From: Escherichia phage vB_EcoM_ESCO10
DNA: 64,000 nucleotides
Reading direction: 5' to 3' (one strand)
Sequence record: OM386655.1
The position numbers were made by a program, and so were the translations under genes. Of this stretch, positions 3,361 through 63,084 are shown piece by piece; the stretch's first letter is position 1, and each line of letters starts with the position of its first letter. The notes beneath the pieces are model-generated. The model was not told the origin of the DNA. It saw only the letters and a program-made list of their open reading frames with translations, and searched no databases.

Positions 3361-3390
3361 ATAGTACCACATCCTTGTGGTGTTGTAAAC
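3361..3390 (-). promoter_or_regulatory. early promoter (sigma70-type, -35 GTTTAC / -10 TACTAT)
   Basis: minus strand GTTTAC-N18-TACTAT upstream of ORF 3042..3332; overlaps stop of alt paralog. Confidence 0.5.
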
Positions 3391-5513
3391 TACATTTTGA
3401 ATTTAGTTGGTAAAGCGGAGATGTTCAAAGATGCTGCAAGGATTTCCATAGCTTCGTTGCTTTCAGAAATAGATTCACTAATCAAGAATTGGCTGAATCC
3501 ATCCATCAGGCGAACTTCGCCGGTTTCCATCAAATGGTCACCATCGTAAACAGATTCGCTGAGCTCTGAAGGAGGTGTTACGGTAGCTTCCATAAGGTAT
3601 TTGTGAGACACTCTATCATTCATGGCAAAAGCCGCTACTTTATCAACCTTCAACAATAATCCGCGCGGAAGGATAATTTCTGCTTCTTCGGCATATTCTG
3701 TAAGGTCGCCGGGAGCGATAACTTTAACTGCTTCAGCACCTCGAATAACCATACCAATTTCAGCAATTCTATCCGCAGGGCCTTCAGGTGCAATTGGATT
3801 ACCAAACTCGTCTTCTTCCCATTCTACCTCTTCGTCATCGACTTCACCCACATCAGATGAACTACCACTAGCCAATTTAAACAACTCATCAGCGGAGGAT
3901 AAAGAACCTTCACCACCAACAAAAACGGCTTGGTTGTCGAGGGCCATATAATTTTTACCGAATTCACCAAAGATGTTAGGCTTTAATGAGGCTGACACAA
4001 AGTTCTTAAAGTAAAATGTTTTGTTATCGATATTATGGCGCAGAATTTTGTATGGCAAATCCTGACCACGATACAAAATAGTACCCTTAGGAAGTTTAAT
4101 ACCCTTAGTAAATGCTGAGTCTAAATCCTTAATCAATTTAATAGCCGTTGTATTGTTTTCGGATTCAGGTTTACCTAAAAGGAATAAGTTCATAGGAGCA
4201 TATTCAGCTGCGCAATATTCAATAATAGCGTTGCTTTCGTCTTTGGTTAGGTCCTTAGGTTTAATGAGCTCACCTGAATAAGCATATGCATCACTAATAG
4301 AATCGTTAATTAGTTTATAAACGGCTTCCATAGCGAAAGCAATTCGAGAGGCCTTTTCTGAAGGGGAGCCTTTAAAACGAGCGCTCAAGTTATTAACAAT
4401 TTTCTTAATAATATCCAGACTATTGGTGGTATTGATTTGCGAAAGGCCGCTTAAAAGTCTATCGACTTCTGTATTAAAAAATGCCATATTTTTAGAGTAA
4501 ATTTCAAACCCTTGTTTATCTCTATTAGCATAATTTAGTTTAAATTTACTATCAGTCATTAAAGCGTGCGTGAGAGCAATGGTGTATCTAAAGTTGGCAA
4601 GGTCCTCGCTCTTAGATTTAAACTGAGAAGCCTGGCGCATTTTGGTAATAGCACCTTTTTTAAAGTTCTGGCTAATCTGTTCAATACCTTCATTCTCAGG
4701 GCCTTCGGCAGTGTGAACCGGTACAGAAGCTTCAAATTCGTTATATACCTGCAATTCTTTAGGGGACAAAGTTTCAGGCTCAGCAGTAGAATACTGTGCG
4801 GCTGCTGCCATACGACGGGAAATCTTAGTACGGGTAATGACAGCCTTATCAGTACGTTTCTCTTCAACCTTAGCGATACTTGCCGCCATAGCTTCGACCT
4901 TACTTACGGCTTGACCTGTTTTCTTAGAAACATAAACTTCACCAACTTTAGACTCGACCTTAGTATAAAGATCGGCATCAATTTCAGGCATACCTTTGAT
5001 ATCTTCGATATTAGAACCACGACGTACTAAAAGAACGTAGGTATGTTTTCCACTGAATTGGAACATATCATCAACAACTTTAAACTTACCACCAGTACGA
5101 GCCATTACTAAACGAGCCAATACACGTTGTACAGTAGGGCCCTTACCTTTCATTTTCTTAGTAGGGAAACGGAACAGAACTGCGTCCATTTTAAGTTTGT
5201 TTACTTGTTCATATACTGTATCGAAAATAGTATTCAATGCACCAAGTGGGTCAGAACCAAGTCCACCTTTGAGTTCAGCCGGGGCTCCTTTGCTTGACAA
5301 ACTCATTAGAATAACATGAACATATTTGTCACCCGGCTTAACCATTTTAACTGCGTCTCCTTGAGACGCATAAGATACCATACGAGCAACAAGGTTATCA
5401 TTACCTGGAGCTTGAATAGAGAAAATCTGTGGGATACCGGAACCTGGTTTAAGATTTGTTACTGGATAGTTTTTAGCGGAATCACTATCAAAAACTTCGT
5501 TTAAATTTTCCAT
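3390..5513 (-). CDS. alt: Alt-like ADP-ribosyltransferase, paralog 1 (707 aa)
   Basis: Size and position match T4 alt (between 54 and 30); R-S-E ADP-ribosyltransferase motifs (LYRGQ ... FVSASL ... EAEIILPRG); N-terminal ~230 aa closely similar to the adjacent paralog. Confidence 0.7.
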   Translation of the reverse strand: MENLNEVFDSDSAKNYPVTNLKPGSGIPQIFSIQAPGNDNLVARMVSYASQGDAVKMVKPGDKYVHVILMSLSSKGAPAELKGGLGSDPLGALNTIFDTVYEQVNKLKMDAVLFRFPTKKMKGKGPTVQRVLARLVMARTGGKFKVVDDMFQFSGKHTYVLLVRRGSNIEDIKGMPEIDADLYTKVESKVGEVYVSKKTGQAVSKVEAMAASIAKVEEKRTDKAVITRTKISRRMAAAAQYSTAEPETLSPKELQVYNEFEASVPVHTAEGPENEGIEQISQNFKKGAITKMRQASQFKSKSEDLANFRYTIALTHALMTDSKFKLNYANRDKQGFEIYSKNMAFFNTEVDRLLSGLSQINTTNSLDIIKKIVNNLSARFKGSPSEKASRIAFAMEAVYKLINDSISDAYAYSGELIKPKDLTKDESNAIIEYCAAEYAPMNLFLLGKPESENNTTAIKLIKDLDSAFTKGIKLPKGTILYRGQDLPYKILRHNIDNKTFYFKNFVSASLKPNIFGEFGKNYMALDNQAVFVGGEGSLSSADELFKLASGSSSDVGEVDDEEVEWEEDEFGNPIAPEGPADRIAEIGMVIRGAEAVKVIAPGDLTEYAEEAEIILPRGLLLKVDKVAAFAMNDRVSHKYLMEATVTPPSELSESVYDGDHLMETGEVRLMDGFSQFLISESISESNEAMEILAASLNISALPTKFKM

Positions 5514-5516
5514 TAT

Positions 5517-7601
5517 TTACCCTTGGATGAATTTTTCTGGGATGTCGTCAAAATCAATACATGAAGCCAAAAGAGGCAACACATCAAAACGTGTGGATTT
5601 TACAAATGAGTCAAAGGACACAGGACTTTCGGAAGTATCAAAATCATCTTGGTATACAGCCAATTCACCGGTTTCCATTAATACGTCACCATCATACACT
5701 ACAGATTCTTGAAGCTCATCTGTTGTCATAACTTCAGCTTGAATGAGCTTTGTATTACTAGATGTTGTCCCGTCATTATTAGAAGCATCAGTTATTTTAT
5801 TAACTTTGACCATCAATCCGCGCGGTAGAATAACTTCAGCTTCTGTTGCTATACCTAATTGGCCTGGATAAACAACATTAACTTTATGAGCACCGTCAAT
5901 AGCCCATCCTATTTGAACTTTAACGTATTCAGGATTTTCTCTATATGCTCTTATTTCGCTTGGGTTAATAGTTATTCCTTCTTCATTTTTATCAACTGTT
6001 AGTTCATTGCGAGCTTCTGGTTCTAAAAGACCCACGCCAGCGTGAGTAACACCAAAACGACCAAAAATAATAGGAGTCAGTGAAGTAGATACAAAATTTC
6101 TAAAATAGAACACTTTATTTTTAACTAGTGCTTCGTATATAGGAGCAGTCATACTTTGGGCACGATAAACTGTAATGCCTTCTGGTATACGGTCTCCATT
6201 TTCAAAAGCTGAATCCAGATTATTAACGGCAGATTCGATATCTTTTTCGCCCATAACCTCATAGTTCTGAGGATTATAACGTCCTAAAAGAAGGTTATTG
6301 ATATCACCATATCCGGAACCACAATATTCACGAATACCACGTTTTTGAGAAGGGGTATATTTATCTGCACTATGACCCAAAGTAATATCAACCATAATAC
6401 CGCCGCCCACACCAGCAAAACTATACACACGTTTTTTAATGAACTTGGTCTTGGCTGCTTTCCACTTGGACTCAGTCAATTCATTCCAGAGGTCATCAGG
6501 TTGCCCTTTACGGGTTTTGTTGTGCGTGGCCACCCACTCGCCTTTATATTCTTCGAAGACACTGTTAATAACCGAAGCATATTTTTCCAGAGCTTTAACA
6601 GATGTTAAAGGTTCATTTTTGATAGCCGTAAGGATTCTCTCTTTAATTTTCTCTTGGATTTCACCAATAGCATGAAGTGGGAACATTTTATATTCGTAAT
6701 GCAACTCTTCAGCAGTACCTTCAGCCACTATATTAACAACCTTATTTTTAGCCGCTGGAGAATTATTATTCGTAACCATTTCCTGCGCGTCAGGGATTAA
6801 TGGAGCTGTAGCCGGTTTATTAAAATCTGCTGAAGTAGCTTCATACTTCTTAAACAGTTCGCTTTCATTACGATAAGATTCTAACGATTGGCTTGCTGCA
6901 ATCGCTCGCCGCGAAATCTTAGTTTTGGTTATAACCATTTTATCAGTGCGACGTTCTTCAACTTTAGCAATACTGCCGGCAATAGCAGTTTCTTTAGTAA
7001 CCTGCACGCCTTCTTTTTTAGAAATATAAACTTCACCAACATCAGAATCTACCTTAGTATACAGTTCAGCATTAATTCCTGGCATACCTTTGATATCTTC
7101 GATATCAGCTTGTTTACGAACTACTAGGATATACGTGTGTTTACCTGTAAATTGGTACATGGCCGGAACTACTTTGAAGCGTCCGCCTGTTTTTTGAGTT
7201 ACTAAACGTTGGATAATTCTCTGGACAACAGGACCTTGACCTTTCATTTTCTTGGTAGGAAAACGGAACATAACAGCATCCATACGAAGCTTTTTAACTT
7301 GTTCGAATACTACGTCGAAAATGGTATTAATAGCATCAATAGGAGTAGGGCCTAAGCCGCCTTTAAGTTCAGCTGGTGAACCTTTAGCTGAAAGGCTCAT
7401 AAGGATGATGTGGGCGTATTTATCACCTAATTTAACCTGTTTAATAGCATCGCCTTCAGAGGCATAAGATACCATACGAGCAACCAATTGGGATTCGGCA
7501 TTACCGATCTTCCAAATCTGGGGCACTTTAAGTTTTGGGTTTAAGTTTACAGTAGGCAGGGTGCCTTCAGACTCAAACACTTCATTTAATTGTTCGGTCA
7601 T
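5517..7601 (-). CDS. alt: Alt-like ADP-ribosyltransferase, paralog 2 (694 aa)
   Basis: Same architecture as paralog 1 (VYRAQ ... FVSTSL ... EAEVILPRG); RBS GAGGAA 6 nt upstream of ATG; only 3 nt separate it from paralog 1. Confidence 0.7.
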   Translation of the reverse strand: MTEQLNEVFESEGTLPTVNLNPKLKVPQIWKIGNAESQLVARMVSYASEGDAIKQVKLGDKYAHIILMSLSAKGSPAELKGGLGPTPIDAINTIFDVVFEQVKKLRMDAVMFRFPTKKMKGQGPVVQRIIQRLVTQKTGGRFKVVPAMYQFTGKHTYILVVRKQADIEDIKGMPGINAELYTKVDSDVGEVYISKKEGVQVTKETAIAGSIAKVEERRTDKMVITKTKISRRAIAASQSLESYRNESELFKKYEATSADFNKPATAPLIPDAQEMVTNNNSPAAKNKVVNIVAEGTAEELHYEYKMFPLHAIGEIQEKIKERILTAIKNEPLTSVKALEKYASVINSVFEEYKGEWVATHNKTRKGQPDDLWNELTESKWKAAKTKFIKKRVYSFAGVGGGIMVDITLGHSADKYTPSQKRGIREYCGSGYGDINNLLLGRYNPQNYEVMGEKDIESAVNNLDSAFENGDRIPEGITVYRAQSMTAPIYEALVKNKVFYFRNFVSTSLTPIIFGRFGVTHAGVGLLEPEARNELTVDKNEEGITINPSEIRAYRENPEYVKVQIGWAIDGAHKVNVVYPGQLGIATEAEVILPRGLMVKVNKITDASNNDGTTSSNTKLIQAEVMTTDELQESVVYDGDVLMETGELAVYQDDFDTSESPVSFDSFVKSTRFDVLPLLASCIDFDDIPEKFIQG

Positions 7602-7839: not shown

Positions 7840-9363
7840 TTATAACCCTGTCTGAGACCAATCACCAAATACGTCTTCAAACGTATCAGCTTCTGTTTTA
7901 TCAAATCGCCAACCTTTAATAATTGGGAGGAAAATACCTACAGTATCAGTACGTCCTTTAGAATGAACCCAACCATTGCATTCACAATCAGCAATACGTC
8001 CAATCAACTTACCTTCACGTGCTTGTTTCATAAGAAGTTCACGGTCTAAATCAGGACGATCTTCCAATGGAATCGACACCTTTTTACCTGATTTATCTTT
8101 CTTATGGGTGGTATCTTTAAAGCCAGAACCGCAGTCACTTGTAATTCGACGACAACGTGATACTAACTCGACACCACCAAGTTTGTTAGGGTCTTTAGAG
8201 TGTTCATAATAACCTACTACTTCTAAAGCGATATCGATTACTTCTTTGAACTTGATAAGATTCTTAGAACGGCGGTTTTCCCAGTAGGAGTCCATGTTCT
8301 TAAGGATAATACCTTCCAGACCTTGGTCGACGTATTTTTTATAAACGACTTTAGCTTCAGCCAAATTGTTAACCCATTGGTTTTCAATAGCTTCAACACG
8401 TGTTGTACCATGCAATACGACATTATGAGCAACCATAAGTTCTAAGGCAGTAAAGCGTAAATCATACTTATCGCCTTTAATTTTACCTTCGGAATACACT
8501 ACATCTAACGGAACGTAATCCCACGCCTGTAATACCATGCCAGCAGCTTCAGTAGCAGAAATAGTTCCTTGAAGAGCTTTGTTAGCCAAGCCGTTTGATG
8601 TAGAACGATCGGCGACGGTTTGGAATTCCTTTGCCTTACTTAATTCAGGGACTTCTTCATCAAACATGCTAAACAGGTCATTGGATGTTTTGGGTTCAAC
8701 CTTAGGGGTATGGTAAACTAATTCACCGTCAATCATAACACCATTAGGATGACGTTTACGAGCTTCTTCAGTCATCACCATTAATTCGGCTGCCAAAAGA
8801 TTAAGTCCTTGGTATTCATTACCACCACGGGTAAGGAATGTAACACCCGAATCACGTACTTCAGCAAAGCAACGAGCCCCATCAGCTTTTAATTGAGCAA
8901 ATGCAGGCCATTTAATATTTTTCTTAATCAGAGCTTCATCATAAGAACTAGCCAACATCTGAGGTTGTTCAGGGATTAAACCTTTCCAAACCTTGTTGGC
9001 AATAGAAATAGATGCACCACATTCAAGGTCACGCATCATTACACGACGTAATACCTCAACATCTTGTCCTTTGGCATCGGCAATAATTTGGGCAAGTTCT
9101 TCAATGGCCGCATTACCTGTAATCTTACGGGTGGCTAATGTGAACTCAGCGAAATCAAGAAGGTCTTCAAGTGTAATCATACCAAAGGATTGAGACGTAA
9201 ATCCAGGTTCTGGCCACTTTTTAATACCGTAGTTTAATCGGCGCGTATAAGCCATACGATAAACACGTTTAAGAAGCTCGTTGTCCTTTTCACGAGCAAT
9301 AATAGCTTCTTTAGCTTTGGTAGAATCGATAGCAGCAATTTCGTTCAAGATATCTAAAATCAT
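7840..9363 (-). CDS. 30: ATP-dependent DNA ligase (gp30)
   Basis: Adenylation motif KADGARCF; strong end-to-end similarity to recalled T4 ligase starting at MILDILNEIA (track Met at 9402 is upstream of the middle-promoter -10); RBS GAGGTGATT-ATG. Confidence 0.85.
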   Translation of the reverse strand: MILDILNEIAAIDSTKAKEAIIAREKDNELLKRVYRMAYTRRLNYGIKKWPEPGFTSQSFGMITLEDLLDFAEFTLATRKITGNAAIEELAQIIADAKGQDVEVLRRVMMRDLECGASISIANKVWKGLIPEQPQMLASSYDEALIKKNIKWPAFAQLKADGARCFAEVRDSGVTFLTRGGNEYQGLNLLAAELMVMTEEARKRHPNGVMIDGELVYHTPKVEPKTSNDLFSMFDEEVPELSKAKEFQTVADRSTSNGLANKALQGTISATEAAGMVLQAWDYVPLDVVYSEGKIKGDKYDLRFTALELMVAHNVVLHGTTRVEAIENQWVNNLAEAKVVYKKYVDQGLEGIILKNMDSYWENRRSKNLIKFKEVIDIALEVVGYYEHSKDPNKLGGVELVSRCRRITSDCGSGFKDTTHKKDKSGKKVSIPLEDRPDLDRELLMKQAREGKLIGRIADCECNGWVHSKGRTDTVGIFLPIIKGWRFDKTEADTFEDVFGDWSQTGL

Positions 9364-9373
9364 AATCACCTCA

Positions 9374-9652
9374 TTAGTCATGGATTCTATTATAAGCCAC
9401 ATCAGCCAAAAGCAAGTCTAATCTCTTATGATAAGAGAACACAAATCTCATTTGACCGTTGGATTTCATTTTAGACATAAAGTGGACATAGATAAATCCT
9501 TGCTCAACGCATTCACGCCAGACCGGATGGTCTTTAGCAGGGTTTACATCAAAAGAATAATCATGATTCACATGTCGAATAAACTGGTTTACATGACCGT
9601 AATCCATTGTAGTGGTAGGGCCACGGTCTGAAATTGTATGAACTACAAACAT
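9374..9652 (-). CDS. hypothetical protein (~92 aa)
   Basis: Track ORF 9374..9676 trimmed to Met 9 (MFVVH..), which follows the upstream stop by 1 nt (TAATATG). Confidence 0.4.
   Translation of the reverse strand: MFVVHTISDRGPTTTMDYGHVNQFIRHVNHDYSFDVNPAKDHPVWRECVEQGFIYVHFMSKMKSNGQMRFVFSYHKRLDLLLADVAYNRIHD
9388..9417 (-). promoter_or_regulatory. MotA-dependent middle promoter for gene 30
   Basis: minus strand cTTGCTTTt - 12 nt - TTATAAT, about 20 nt upstream of ligase ATG at 9363. Confidence 0.5.
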
Positions 9653-9653
9653 A

Positions 9654-10292
9654 TTAACCTCGAGCAACCCATTCAACGGCTGTATTATTACGAAGAGATT
9701 CGATAGCTGCTATATCGTCCCACGAATTAACCTTTACTGCTAAATTAGGTTTAAAGTCACGTTCACCACGGGCCAACCAATAAACTTGGATATCCATGAG
9801 AACATTAGATGCAGCATCACAGTGGTGAGCCAAATCATCAACATAAAACTTAATACGCTTACCATAAGTATTTTTAGCTCTTACGAACAGGTCTTCTTTT
9901 GATTCTGAATGGCCACACATCAGAATCTCCTTGAATGCGCCAGGGAACAAAGCATTCAAATTGAATTGTCTATTCAGCAGGGCATCAATTGAGTCGCCTA
10001 GCGCAGTCACGGCTACAAAATCGAAGTCTTTTTTGAGCTTGTTGATATGTTTTAGTGCGTCCATATAAGGAGACAGATAACGAATGAAATCTGACTGATT
10101 GTATTTCTCGATTAAACGAGCGCCTAATTCGTTGTCACAATTAAACAACTCACCTGGAGATAAGAAACGTTCGTCCTGAATCATATTCAAAATATGTTCT
10201 AAAGGCAGATTATATTTCTGTGCAAAATAAGGCAAGCCAGACTGCCAACTTAAACATACTCCATCGATATCTGTTAAGATAACTGGTTTCAT
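9654..10292 (-). CDS. HAD-superfamily phosphatase-like protein (212 aa)
   Basis: N-terminal DxDGV motif (ILTDIDGVCL) typical of HAD motif I; 4-nt overlap with upstream gene. Confidence 0.5.
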   Translation of the reverse strand: MKPVILTDIDGVCLSWQSGLPYFAQKYNLPLEHILNMIQDERFLSPGELFNCDNELGARLIEKYNQSDFIRYLSPYMDALKHINKLKKDFDFVAVTALGDSIDALLNRQFNLNALFPGAFKEILMCGHSESKEDLFVRAKNTYGKRIKFYVDDLAHHCDAASNVLMDIQVYWLARGERDFKPNLAVKVNSWDDIAAIESLRNNTAVEWVARG

Positions 10293-10756
10293 AATAAATC
10301 TCTCAATTTGTTTAGGATGTCGATAAACTCTTTTTCAGTTAGTATTGTATCACATTCTGTAAGGTGGCTTGCCATCGAATGCTTTAAAACTTTGCCTTTT
10401 GTAGCTTGTAATGCGTCGCGGAATCCTTTGTTTTGGAGCGCCGCTTCAAAATACGCATTTTCATACAACTCTTTCCATGCTGCAGAGTATCTTGAAAACG
10501 GAACTCCAAGCCAGAACAACGTGCCACGGTCCGCAGCTCTTGCATAAGCTCTTCCAGTTTGTTGGGCTGCAAGCCCGGACATCCTAAATATACGTCTTTG
10601 TTGTTCAACATTTTTCACCTTACACCCTTGGAGGAATCCTTCGAGTCCACCAAATTGGATACCGTCCATAACAAAAGGCCACTTAGCAAAGTTACTTAAT
10701 GCACATGATGGCCATGGGAAATTACTTCTAATTTCTAACTCAGACATCTTTAACAC
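10289..10756 (-). CDS. NADAR / YbiA-like N-glycosidase family protein (155 aa)
   Basis: Motif LSNFAKWPFVMDGIQF resembles the YbiA/NADAR signature FSNFAAWP..DG; track start is GTG, alternative ATG (MSELEIR) 9 nt downstream. Confidence 0.5.
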   Translation of the reverse strand: MLKMSELEIRSNFPWPSCALSNFAKWPFVMDGIQFGGLEGFLQGCKVKNVEQQRRIFRMSGLAAQQTGRAYARAADRGTLFWLGVPFSRYSAAWKELYENAYFEAALQNKGFRDALQATKGKVLKHSMASHLTECDTILTEKEFIDILNKLRDLL

Positions 10757-10952
10757 TTATAATATCGATATCACACCAATGGCCATAACCCGGTAGACGG
10801 TCTTCAACAGATAAACCGCTGACATATTTGAGCATCGTTGTTTTCATTATAACAGGTTCAATATCTTGACCGCCTGGGCGAACGTCTGTTACGCGATAAG
10901 TCACTTCGACCATTTCAGTACCTAACAATTTCTGAATCAGTTTCTTAAACAT
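10740..10952 (-). CDS. hypothetical protein (70 aa)
   Basis: Track ORF in compact minus-strand early block. Confidence 0.45.
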   Translation of the reverse strand: MFKKLIQKLLGTEMVEVTYRVTDVRPGGQDIEPVIMKTTMLKYVSGLSVEDRLPGYGHWCDIDIISVKDV

Positions 10953-12318: not shown

Positions 12319-12369
12319 ACTTTTTTAAAGATACAGAAACAAAAATGGGACTCCGAAGAGTCCCATAAC

Positions 12370-12531
12370 TTATGCCCGAGGCTTACCAAAACGAGAAGCA
12401 TCGTCGCGGATAACAGCACGAGCCCGACGCATAATCTTCTCAACTGTCTGATTGATACGTGAGTTAGACGCACGCTTGTAACCAGCGCGTTTAGAGGTTC
12501 CGTCAACTACTTTAACTTCTTTCTTAGCCAT
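12370..12531 (-). CDS. small basic protein (53 aa), not in ORF track
   Basis: ATG..TAA ORF MAKKEVKVVDGTSKRAGYKRASNSRINQTVEKIMRRARAVIRDDASRFGKPRA; more protein-like than the overlapping TTG-initiated track ORF 12288..12506. Confidence 0.35.
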   Translation of the reverse strand: MAKKEVKVVDGTSKRAGYKRASNSRINQTVEKIMRRARAVIRDDASRFGKPRA

Positions 12532-61842: not shown

Positions 61843-62457
61843 TCAGTAAGAAAGAACGGAAAGATTCCAGATGGTGTAATTATTCCATTTAGGATTTCTC
61901 TCAATAGAGTCTACGCGCAGCGTAGTTCCCGCAGGGAACATCATCTCATCTTCATCATTTATTAATTGCAAGTTTGCTACACGGGTAGATTCAGGAAATG
62001 CGCCTGGGAACTCTTCAGGGGGCGCAGCACATAACATTTTAAAGATTTCTTCCTGATAATTGTACACAAATGGTGCATCATTAATACAAAAGATGTTAAA
62101 TGTTCCATAGAAGTTATAAGATGCAAAATTCCTTGCCACGTTGAAGTCTTTAGAGAAGCTCATCACGCGGTCGAATTCAATTACCGCACCTACACACATT
62201 GTGGACTCTAGATACTTCATAGTCTTTTTAGATATGCCGCGATAGAGCTTATCGGGCACTACAGAAGACAGGTTCTTACGAATAATTTTGTTCAGAGTTT
62301 CCTGGATACAATCCGGTTTATTTTCCATGCACTGCCAGAGTGTGCTCTGTTCTAAATCAGAATACACCTCATCAATTTCTATCTGAGTATTCTCACGGAA
62401 ATCATCGCATTTGACATTGTTGATAAATTCTGCTAATTTATGGCTTGGGTATAACAT
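61843..62457 (-). CDS. Mod-type ADP-ribosyltransferase (ModA-like by position, 204 aa)
   Basis: R-S-E ART motifs (LYRGIS ... SFSKD ... DEDEMMF); paralogous to the upstream gene; T4 ModA is 200 aa. Confidence 0.6.
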   Translation of the reverse strand: MLYPSHKLAEFINNVKCDDFRENTQIEIDEVYSDLEQSTLWQCMENKPDCIQETLNKIIRKNLSSVVPDKLYRGISKKTMKYLESTMCVGAVIEFDRVMSFSKDFNVARNFASYNFYGTFNIFCINDAPFVYNYQEEIFKMLCAAPPEEFPGAFPESTRVANLQLINDEDEMMFPAGTTLRVDSIERNPKWNNYTIWNLSVLSY

Positions 62458-62482: not shown

Positions 62483-62512
62483 ATAGTAACATAAGCTTCC
62501 TTGCTTGTAAAC
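62483..62512 (-). promoter_or_regulatory. early promoter GTTTAC-N18-TACTAT
   Basis: Upstream of ORF 61843..62457; -35 overlaps upstream gene stop. Confidence 0.45.
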
Positions 62513-63084
62513 TAAAAATCTAACATTTTTAAATGGATTGTTTTGTATTCTATTTCAAGTGGGTCTCTTTTGATAGTTTCTATTTCAACAATCTCGAATC
62601 GTGATAGGCTAGAGACCATGAACTCACATTCAGTTTCGACCATATCATAGAGGTCCACACGAGTTTCGTTGATTCCATTGTCTTCTACGTTCCCTGCAAG
62701 AACCAAGTCAATAGCATGGTTGTAGTAGTCAAAAATGAATGGCGCGTTCCTGAGACTTAAAATGGTCTTGGTTCCATATTCCCAAGCGCCTGCGAACTGA
62801 CGAGCTTGCGAGTATTGTGTACTAAAAGAAGTAACACGACCAGGAGACCATTGGCACCCTACTGTAAGAAATCTTAACTGTCTGAGCTCTTCTGGGGTAA
62901 TCCCACGATACAACTCTACAGGAACAGCAGAAGTCATATGCTTACGAACCAGCTTGTCTAGGTCATAATGGAAATTAGGGTCTTCTTTAGAATTCAGACA
63001 TTTCTCTAAAAGGGCTTGTTCAGGTTTTGAGAATTTAGAATTGATTCGGTCTTGATAAAGGCACATTTCTTGTTCGATGTTCAT
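62512..63084 (-). CDS. Mod-type ADP-ribosyltransferase (ModB-like by position, 190 aa)
   Basis: R-S-E ART motifs (LYRGIT ... SFSTQ ... ECEFMV); SD GGAGG upstream. Confidence 0.6.
   Translation of the reverse strand: MNIEQEMCLYQDRINSKFSKPEQALLEKCLNSKEDPNFHYDLDKLVRKHMTSAVPVELYRGITPEELRQLRFLTVGCQWSPGRVTSFSTQYSQARQFAGAWEYGTKTILSLRNAPFIFDYYNHAIDLVLAGNVEDNGINETRVDLYDMVETECEFMVSSLSRFEIVEIETIKRDPLEIEYKTIHLKMLDF

Follow-up and report, generated by a model that had tools for sequence, protein, structure and literature searches.

The 64,000-nucleotide stretch of Escherichia phage vB_EcoM_ESCO10 DNA analysed here (OM386655.1; referred to below as the window) carries on its minus strand, at 9654-10747, two overlapping genes that a first-pass annotation had described as a NADAR/YbiA-like protein next to a HAD-like phosphatase. 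We read the first of them in the direction of transcription (10289-10747) as adfN, the counterpart of T4 gene 30.3, encoding an orphan NADAR antitoxin against the DarTG1 toxin-antitoxin system, and the second, gene 30.2, as the gene of a separate HAD phosphatase that is no partner in the anti-DarT reaction. We put the probability of this reading as a whole at about 0.88.

The open reading frame (ORF) 10289-10747 matches the Pfam family PF08010 (bacteriophage protein GP30.3) with an E value of 8.9e-66 and 220 bits, for a cut-off of 36, and 133 of its 152 residues (88%) are the same as in T4 gp30.3 in a gapless alignment over the full length. This ORF is the orthologue of T4 gene 30.3 (adfN). 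The LSNFAKWP-type signature that had first drawn attention to it was found as ALSNFAKWPFVMDG at residues 16-29, numbered from the ATG, and its LSNF corresponds to L17, S18, N19 and F20. All four are invariant in 64-65 gp30.3 homologues, as are, among others, E36, G37, F38, Q40, K43, H123, T134 and T137. The 19 differences from the T4 protein all avoid the invariant and nearly invariant columns; the alignments used for structure prediction of gp30.3 and gp30.2 were built without the T4 row. The codons of the catalytic glutamate E36 (GAA, 10640-10642) and the catalytic lysine K43 (AAG, 10619-10621) can be read directly on the minus strand, and both residues align with the stretch SEHYFQAQK of Escherichia coli YbiA. 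On the same strand lie the codon of H123 (CAT, 10379-10381), the charged residue of the last strand, and residues 139-152 (10292-10333), which make up most of the C-terminal helix and are intact in the full-length alignment with T4. Given the E values of 8.9e-66 for 30.3 with PF08010 and 1.2e-70 for 30.2 with phrog_420, neither ORF arises by chance.

The ORF had been delimited at 10289-10756. It is a real minus-strand gene, but its start is almost certainly the ATG at 10747, which gives 152 residues, and not the GTG at 10756, because the product then aligns residue for residue and without gaps with the 152-residue T4 gp30.3 and because the overlaps known from T4 are reproduced. Indeed, the end of 30.4 and the start of adfN share 8 nt (10740-10747, ATGTCTGA), and the end of adfN and the start of 30.2 share the 4 nt ATGA, both as in T4. 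Compared with T4 AdfN, the protein therefore has the same length, the same position and overlaps between 30.4 and 30.2, the same E36, K43 and H123 and the same C-terminal helix. It differs by 19 substitutions, all at variable positions, and by its carrier, a Dhakavirus-like phage rather than a Tequatrovirus.

The fold places the protein in the NADAR superfamily. The AlphaFold2 model has a predicted local distance difference test score (pLDDT) of 95.1 and a predicted template modelling (TM) score of 0.90, with strands at 3-5, 25-27, 30-32, 76-79, 82-85 and 120-122, core helices and a helix at 138-151. When it was compared with the PDB by Foldseek, only three matches were convincing, with probabilities of 0.98-1.00, the fourth having 0.01. 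The best was E. coli YbiA (2b3w, E 1.4e-4, TM 0.68), and the others were a Phytophthora nicotianae NADAR (PnNADAR) with ADP-ribose (8bau) and the DarT1-linked NADAR of Geobacter lovleyi (GlNADAR, 8bat). Together with the PF08010 match and the retained E36 and K43, these fold matches bear out the description of the ORF as NADAR/YbiA-like. YbiA, an N-glycosidase of riboflavin intermediates, is also the only sequence-level match in the PDB, and its SNFA..W and E..Q..K motifs align with those of AdfN; however, the two proteins are only 18% identical, their physiological substrates differ, and AdfN has a histidine in place of the last-strand glutamate that defines the YbiA family. According to the clade rule, the last strand carries a charged residue that differs between groups: phage gp30.3 proteins have His there, YbiA has Glu and the DarT1-linked (BC4488) NADARs have Asp (PMC11125620, PMC11543638); Schuller et al. 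cite the NADAR classification of De Souza and Aravind. In our model H123 is located in this last strand (120-122/123). With H123, an intact C-terminal helix and the 30.4-30.3-30.2 position, as in T4 and Bp7, the AdfN described here belongs to the phage gp30.3 clade. The DarT1-linked NADARs that serve as DarG1 antitoxins (BC4488 family, such as G. lovleyi 8bat and the E. coli C7 NADAR; PMC11543638) share with it the fold and, to judge from T4 AdfN, the hydrolysis of guanine-N-linked ADP-ribose on DNA, whereas AdfN has His and not Asp in the last strand and is devoid of their fold extensions (152 residues versus 219 for 8bat). Unlike them, it is not accompanied by a toxin: no DarT gene adjoins adfN, whose flanks are 30.4 (phrog_2042) and 30.2 (HAD). 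Because of this, the gene is an orphan antitoxin-like gene and not part of a toxin-antitoxin system.

The biology of the T4 orthologue is well established. T4 gp30.3 was renamed AdfN (anti-DarT factor NADAR) in 2024 by Johannesman, Carlson and LeRoux, who, by crossing phages, assigned DarTG1 resistance in T-even phages to gene 30.3 and found the gene both necessary and sufficient for it (PMC11257639). In their work, T4 and T2 deleted for adfN were about 4 logs more sensitive to DarTG1, the substitutions E36A and K43A abolished AdfN function, and purified AdfN alone stripped ADP-ribose from DarT1-modified DNA, while no interaction between AdfN and DarT1 was seen by two-hybrid assay and DarTG2 was not countered (PMC11257639). 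T4 AdfN is active in T-even infections, probably owing to their hydroxymethyl-cytosine DNA, and cannot serve as an antitoxin to neutralise DarT1 in uninfected E. coli (PMC11257639). In vitro, T4 gp30.3 hydrolyses guanosine-ADP-ribose and not thymidine-ADP-ribose (PMC11125620); the methods of that paper give the T4 NADAR construct as "gp30.3; residues 1-208", a length that disagrees with the 152 residues of NC_000866. The removal of ADP-ribose from DarT-modified guanine, which the first-pass annotation had raised from the motif, is thus experimentally demonstrated for an orthologue that is 88% identical (PMC11257639, PMC11125620). Independent transposon sequencing (Tn-seq) of T4 on a DarTG1 host agrees: insertions in 30.3 had a log2 fold change of -7.25, with an adjusted p printed as 0.00000, i.e. 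<1e-5 (10.1101/2025.11.20.689424, Data S6), and 30.3 mutants were neutral without DarTG1 (10.1101/2025.11.20.689424). The only other significant gene was 30.4, mildly depleted (log2 fold change -1.79, adjusted p 0.014; 10.1101/2025.11.20.689424). As 30.4 lies immediately upstream of adfN and overlaps its start, we read this depletion as a polar effect on 30.3. A small contribution by gp30.4 itself is an alternative explanation.

We therefore predict that this phage is resistant to DarTG1, since its adfN allele is intact. By orthology with T4, the following scenario may be proposed for vB_EcoM_ESCO10. Upon infection of a DarTG1-carrying cell, DarT1 would ADP-ribosylate guanines of the phage DNA and thereby block replication. 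AdfN, presumably made early in infection, would rely on E36, K43 and the H123 typical of the phage clade to cleave the N-glycosidic bond between ADP-ribose and guanine, so that ADP-ribose would be released, the base restored and replication could proceed. The enzyme would do so without binding DarT1, would leave the thymine-specific DarT2 uncountered, and would be most effective on T-even phage DNA, with its hydroxymethyl-cytosine. As for gp30.2, it would be a Mg-dependent, C1-capped HAD phosphatase, most likely dephosphorylating a small nucleotide-like molecule.

The state of the allele varies among relatives. RB69 has the same gene at the same locus but is DarTG1-sensitive, a 1-nt insertion having removed the last 15 residues, that is, the C-terminal helix, and it is rescued by ectopic AdfN (PMC11257639); the allele described here is full length. 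Broken adfN alleles were also met in many public T-even phages and contigs (P0013-P0016, P0019, P0020; locus L085). SV76 and UGJNEcP4 have lost the N-terminus with E36 and K43, and other variants are frameshifts into or out of the 30.3' frame or, in one case, a 30.7::30.3 deletion fusion. It seems that adfN is often lost among T-even relatives, as in RB69. The 30.3' frame itself corresponds to a 75-residue ORF inside adfN in another frame (10384-10611, minus strand), the equivalent of the 30.3' annotated in T4; it is 63% identical to its T4 counterpart, versus 88% for the main frame. This frame is open over 74-75 residues in most close relatives and over 53 in three, and it is absent in distant homologues. 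Being open in close relatives only, ORF 10384-10611 is probably not a gene.

The neighbour, ORF 9654-10292, encodes 212 residues beginning with MKPVILTDIDGVCLSW, which contains motif I of the HAD superfamily (DxDGV, with D8 and D10). The first-pass annotation had recognised this motif as DIDGV, and rightly so. It occupies 10257-10271 on the minus strand, with the nucleophile D8 encoded at 10269-10271 and the general acid/base D10 at 10263-10265. The second Asp of motif I marks HAD phosphatases and phosphotransferases rather than dehalogenases. Among 55-56 gp30.2 homologues from Escherichia, Acinetobacter, Vibrio, Shewanella and Pseudomonas phages, residues D8, D10, G11, K132, D152 and D153 never vary and T96 hardly does, which accounts for all four HAD motifs, and D8, D10 and K132 are still invariant in remote relatives. 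The AlphaFold2 model (pLDDT 92.7) has HAD folds as its top structural matches, and a four-helix insertion directly after the motif I strand represents a C1 cap. We conclude that gp30.2 is a HAD-superfamily phosphatase with a C1 cap. Its family, phrog_420, matched with an E value of 1.2e-70, is annotated "unknown function" and is spread among T4-like phages of Escherichia, Klebsiella, Serratia, Erwinia, Acinetobacter, Vibrio, Shewanella and Pseudomonas. The protein is 74% identical to T4 gp30.2 over 194 aligned residues, which cover the first 191 residues of the T4 protein, and lacks the C-terminal tail of about 85 residues found there. This tail is highly variable in length, being absent here (212 residues), about 85 residues long in T4 (278 residues) and such that some members reach 347 residues; the last 20 or so residues of the protein from our phage were modelled at low confidence.

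The substrate of gp30.2 can be approached through its distant relatives. The best Pfam family was NT5C (PF06941), at 13.3 bits and E 0.075, and as this score lies under the gathering threshold of 24.8 bits we leave gp30.2 outside the NT5C family. Mouse cytosolic 5'(3')-deoxyribonucleotidase was the sole HAD enzyme among its sub-threshold PDB sequence matches, ranking eighth of ten by single sequence (E 0.25) and first by family profile (E 0.11). A profile search over 1.84 billion representatives returned 1,247 relatives; 15 of the 56 remote ones that we sampled match NT5C (best E 6.1e-10), more than match any other family. With the profile widened in this way, the best PDB match became the putative 5'(3')-deoxyribonucleotidase 3bwv (E 1.1e-4), with pyrimidine and xanthosine nucleotidases ranking next. 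In the fold comparison, other HAD IA families score on a par with NT5C, and gp30.2 is only 14-18% identical to the NT5C 5'(3')-deoxyribonucleotidases themselves (cdN and mdN, 2jao and 1q92; Staphylococcus epidermidis 3bwv). Judged from these sequence relationships, which are weak but agree in direction, gp30.2 is a distantly NT5C-like small-molecule phosphatase, probably acting on nucleotides.

Could the two genes nevertheless work together, as the first-pass annotation had suggested when it called the pair a counter-defence or DNA-damage reversal module? The NADAR would then free ADP-ribose and the HAD enzyme would process this product or a related intermediate, both being needed for full protection. 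The ATGA overlap, by which adfN and 30.2 are probably translationally coupled as well as co-transcribed, is consistent with such an arrangement, and so is the order of the genes. Using family hidden Markov models on fetched viral loci, 80 centred on 30.3 and 68 centred on 30.2, we found that 33 of the 68 loci hold a 30.3 homologue, which without exception lies upstream of 30.2, on its strand and at a distance of 0-1.2 kb; distant Acinetobacter phages keep this order too. However, T4-like genomes are broadly syntenic, so that adjacency alone weighs little, and the remaining 35 loci have no 30.3 nearby; conversely, a 30.2 homologue lies within 6 kb in 20 of the 80 loci centred on 30.3 and is missing from that range in the other 60. 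Several T4-like genomes have 55-60 kb between the two genes. In one of these, IMGVR_UViG_2974573174, 30.2 has kept its place next to 30.7 and ligase, and about 60 kb separates it from the NADAR gene. The two loci concerned (L072 and L108 of IMGVR_UViG_2974573174_000001) have the NADAR gene among unrelated small ORFs, adjoining a gene for a DUF1190 protein, and 30.2 between 30.7 and ligase. The position of 30.2 near the ligase gene is thus stable and that of the NADAR gene is not, and the adjacency seen here is inherited gene order. The functional data point the same way. Gene 30.2 of T4 is not essential, with insertions at 72 of 72 sites, and behaves neutrally on minimal medium; Tn-seq shows no phenotype of its disruption on K-12, whether in LB, in M9 or in the presence of DarTG1. 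With DarTG1, insertions at 71 sites of 30.2 had a log2 fold change of -0.12 (p 0.61, adjusted p 1.0), compared with -7.25 for 30.3 (10.1101/2025.11.20.689424), and purified AdfN removes ADP-ribose from DNA unaided (PMC11257639). With 30.2 neutral on DarTG1 in T4, AdfN working alone and the genes mostly unlinked, the module is not supported, and for DarTG1 in T4 it is largely refuted; we consider it very unlikely. Gene 30.2 is a syntenic neighbour of adfN and its product no partner in the anti-DarT reaction.

Other roles have to be weighed for each of the two proteins. If gp30.2 were a 3'-phosphatase healing DNA or RNA ends, it would prepare nicks for the adjoining ligase. Within the HAD superfamily, C1 caps are associated with small substrates, and the phage already carries pseT with its capless HAD domain; since gp30.2 has a C1 cap and pseT is present, a DNA-end phosphatase role is highly improbable. 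For gp30.3, the fact that YbiA is its best structural match, together with a weak match to the model TIGR02464 for riboflavin-intermediate N-glycosidases (E 0.064), would fit an enzyme acting mainly on soluble molecules, either riboflavin intermediates or ADP-ribose-derived immune signals, and Iyer et al. argued in 2022, before the experiments, that phage NADARs prefer soluble ADP-ribose derivatives (PMC9503650). Yet the last-strand glutamate of the YbiA family is replaced by an invariant histidine in gp30.3, the T4 protein has direct hydrolase activity on guanine-ADP-ribose in DNA and a strong and specific DarTG1 phenotype, and no phenotype of T4 30.3 appeared on minimal medium by Tn-seq. We give very little credence to this possibility, and still less to the last one, according to which gp30.3 would reverse or tune ADP-ribosylation by the phage's own Alt, ModA and ModB rather than counter a host toxin. 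Two alt paralogues do lie 2-7 kb from the gp30.3 gene and ModA/ModB-like genes at 61.8-63.1 kb, and T4-like NADARs are expressed early, together with ADP-ribosyltransferases, according to Iyer et al. (PMC9503650). Against this, those NADARs that have been characterised act specifically on ADP-ribose linked to guanine in nucleic acid, the targets of Alt and Mod are proteins, with RNA ends as a further target of ModB, T4 30.3 mutants are neutral in the absence of DarTG1, and the DarTG1 phenotype accounts fully for the gene.

Several points weigh against our reading of the pair, that of adfN as an orphan anti-DarTG1 gene next to a separate phosphatase. Both the activity of AdfN and the DarTG1 phenotype are taken from the T4 orthologue, which is 88% identical. 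The ATGA overlap, and the order 30.3 then 30.2 that is fixed in 33 of the 68 loci sampled around 30.2, still allow to some degree for a functional connection. Finally, the direct sequence route to the superfamily is weak. The NADAR profile search gave no match of the AdfN of this phage to PF08719 at E<=0.1 in Pfam, though it matched PF08010 at 8.9e-66 and 16 of 64 members of the gp30.3 family do match PF08719 (best E 1.5e-7). Sequence searches of the PDB returned YbiA only, at E 0.39 with the single sequence and 0.022 with the profile, and the sole NCBIfam match was the sub-threshold one to TIGR02464. For this reason, the link to the NADAR superfamily rests on the fold, the catalytic residues and such transitive matches.

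The surroundings of the pair are those of a T-even early region. This region was matched by 520 phage records, the closest of which, Escherichia phages LQ5, IME540, Bp7, QL01 and WG01, are about 92% identical over 1.7 kb. Bp7 is a Dhakavirus of the Tevenvirinae, and the source phage is a T-even phage (Tevenvirinae) of Dhakavirus-like type. The genes follow the order of the T4 early cluster, with alt (two paralogues), alt.1, 30, 30.1, 30.2, 30.3, 30.4, 30.5, 30.6, 30.7, 30.8, rIII, 31, cd, pseT, alc and rnlA. The "DNA-repair neighbourhood" that had been noted is simply this conserved order. The whole cluster is read on the minus strand, from 30.4 (10740-10952, 70 residues, phrog_2042 E 1.6e-30), whose last 8 nt overlap the adfN start, through 30.3 and 30.2 to 30.1 and 30. 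Gene 30.1 (DUF3045, 9374-9652) is identified by PF11243 (E 1.7e-16) and by the T4 and Bp7 annotation, and its likely start is the ATG at 9652, one base past the stop codon of 30.2; gene 30, at 7840-9402, is annotated as DNA ligase in the matching phage records and encodes the ATP-dependent enzyme. The pair had been placed immediately downstream of the ligase gene, which is correct in plus-strand coordinates. By transcription, which for this whole cluster runs along the minus strand, it is upstream, with 30.1 in between. A scan for promoters and terminators yielded fewer sites than shuffled sequences predict (7 vs 15.4 and 3 vs 4.2, respectively) and no evidence for a separate transcription unit of the pair. 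Two consensus matches from this part of the cluster may be mentioned as such. One is a promoter-like site with an extended -10 upstream of 30.7 (11911-11884, minus strand); the other is a strong terminator-like hairpin at 12345-12366 (minus strand), with a 9-bp stem followed by a T-run, between 30.8 and a 53-residue ORF (12370-12531) that is a putative 30.9 by its T4 position.

The window holds five ADP-ribosylation genes, namely two alt, two ModA/ModB-like genes and adfN. The alt genes are full-length and in tandem (3390-5513 and 5517-7601, both on the minus strand), encode Alt-type ADP-ribosyltransferases of 707 and 694 residues that are 38% identical, and both match PF03496; T4 has one alt gene and the short alt.-1 and alt.-2, remnants of an old duplication. 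The ModA/ModB-like ADP-ribosyltransferase ORFs (61843-62457 and 62512-63084, minus strand) are 32-33% identical to T4 ModB. The window has no gene for the second anti-DarT1 factor, AdfA (T4 61.2).

What do these results mean for T4-like phages? The NADAR reading of the ORF is correct but already published, and as the orthologue of a known counter-defence gene it adds nothing new to NADAR biology. The question that the locus touches is rather the role of gp30.2, an early HAD phosphatase that is widely conserved among T4-like phages and specific to them. A literature search under the name gp30.2 found no paper, the numerals 30.1, 30.2 and 30.3 returning only irrelevant clinical papers, and the NARP3 paper contains nothing on HAD enzymes. 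That gp30.2 is itself a counter-defence or pool-sanitising enzyme in these phages strikes us as unlikely, although one can imagine two versions of it. The enzyme may dephosphorylate unwanted deoxynucleoside monophosphates from host DNA breakdown, such as dCMP and Dam-methylated m6-dAMP, and so blunt nucleotide-sensing host systems; m6-dAMP has been reported as a trigger of the PUA-Cal-HAD defence (10.64898/2026.01.15.699771). Alternatively, it may aid AdfN only against other DarT variants or under other conditions. For the gene itself the consequence is direct. ORF 10289-10747, a "hypothetical protein" in the closest GenBank relatives, should be annotated as AdfN (anti-DarT factor NADAR; DNA guanine ADP-ribosylglycohydrolase), and an intact adfN allele predicts plating on DarTG1-carrying E. 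coli, which would be useful in choosing therapeutic phages.

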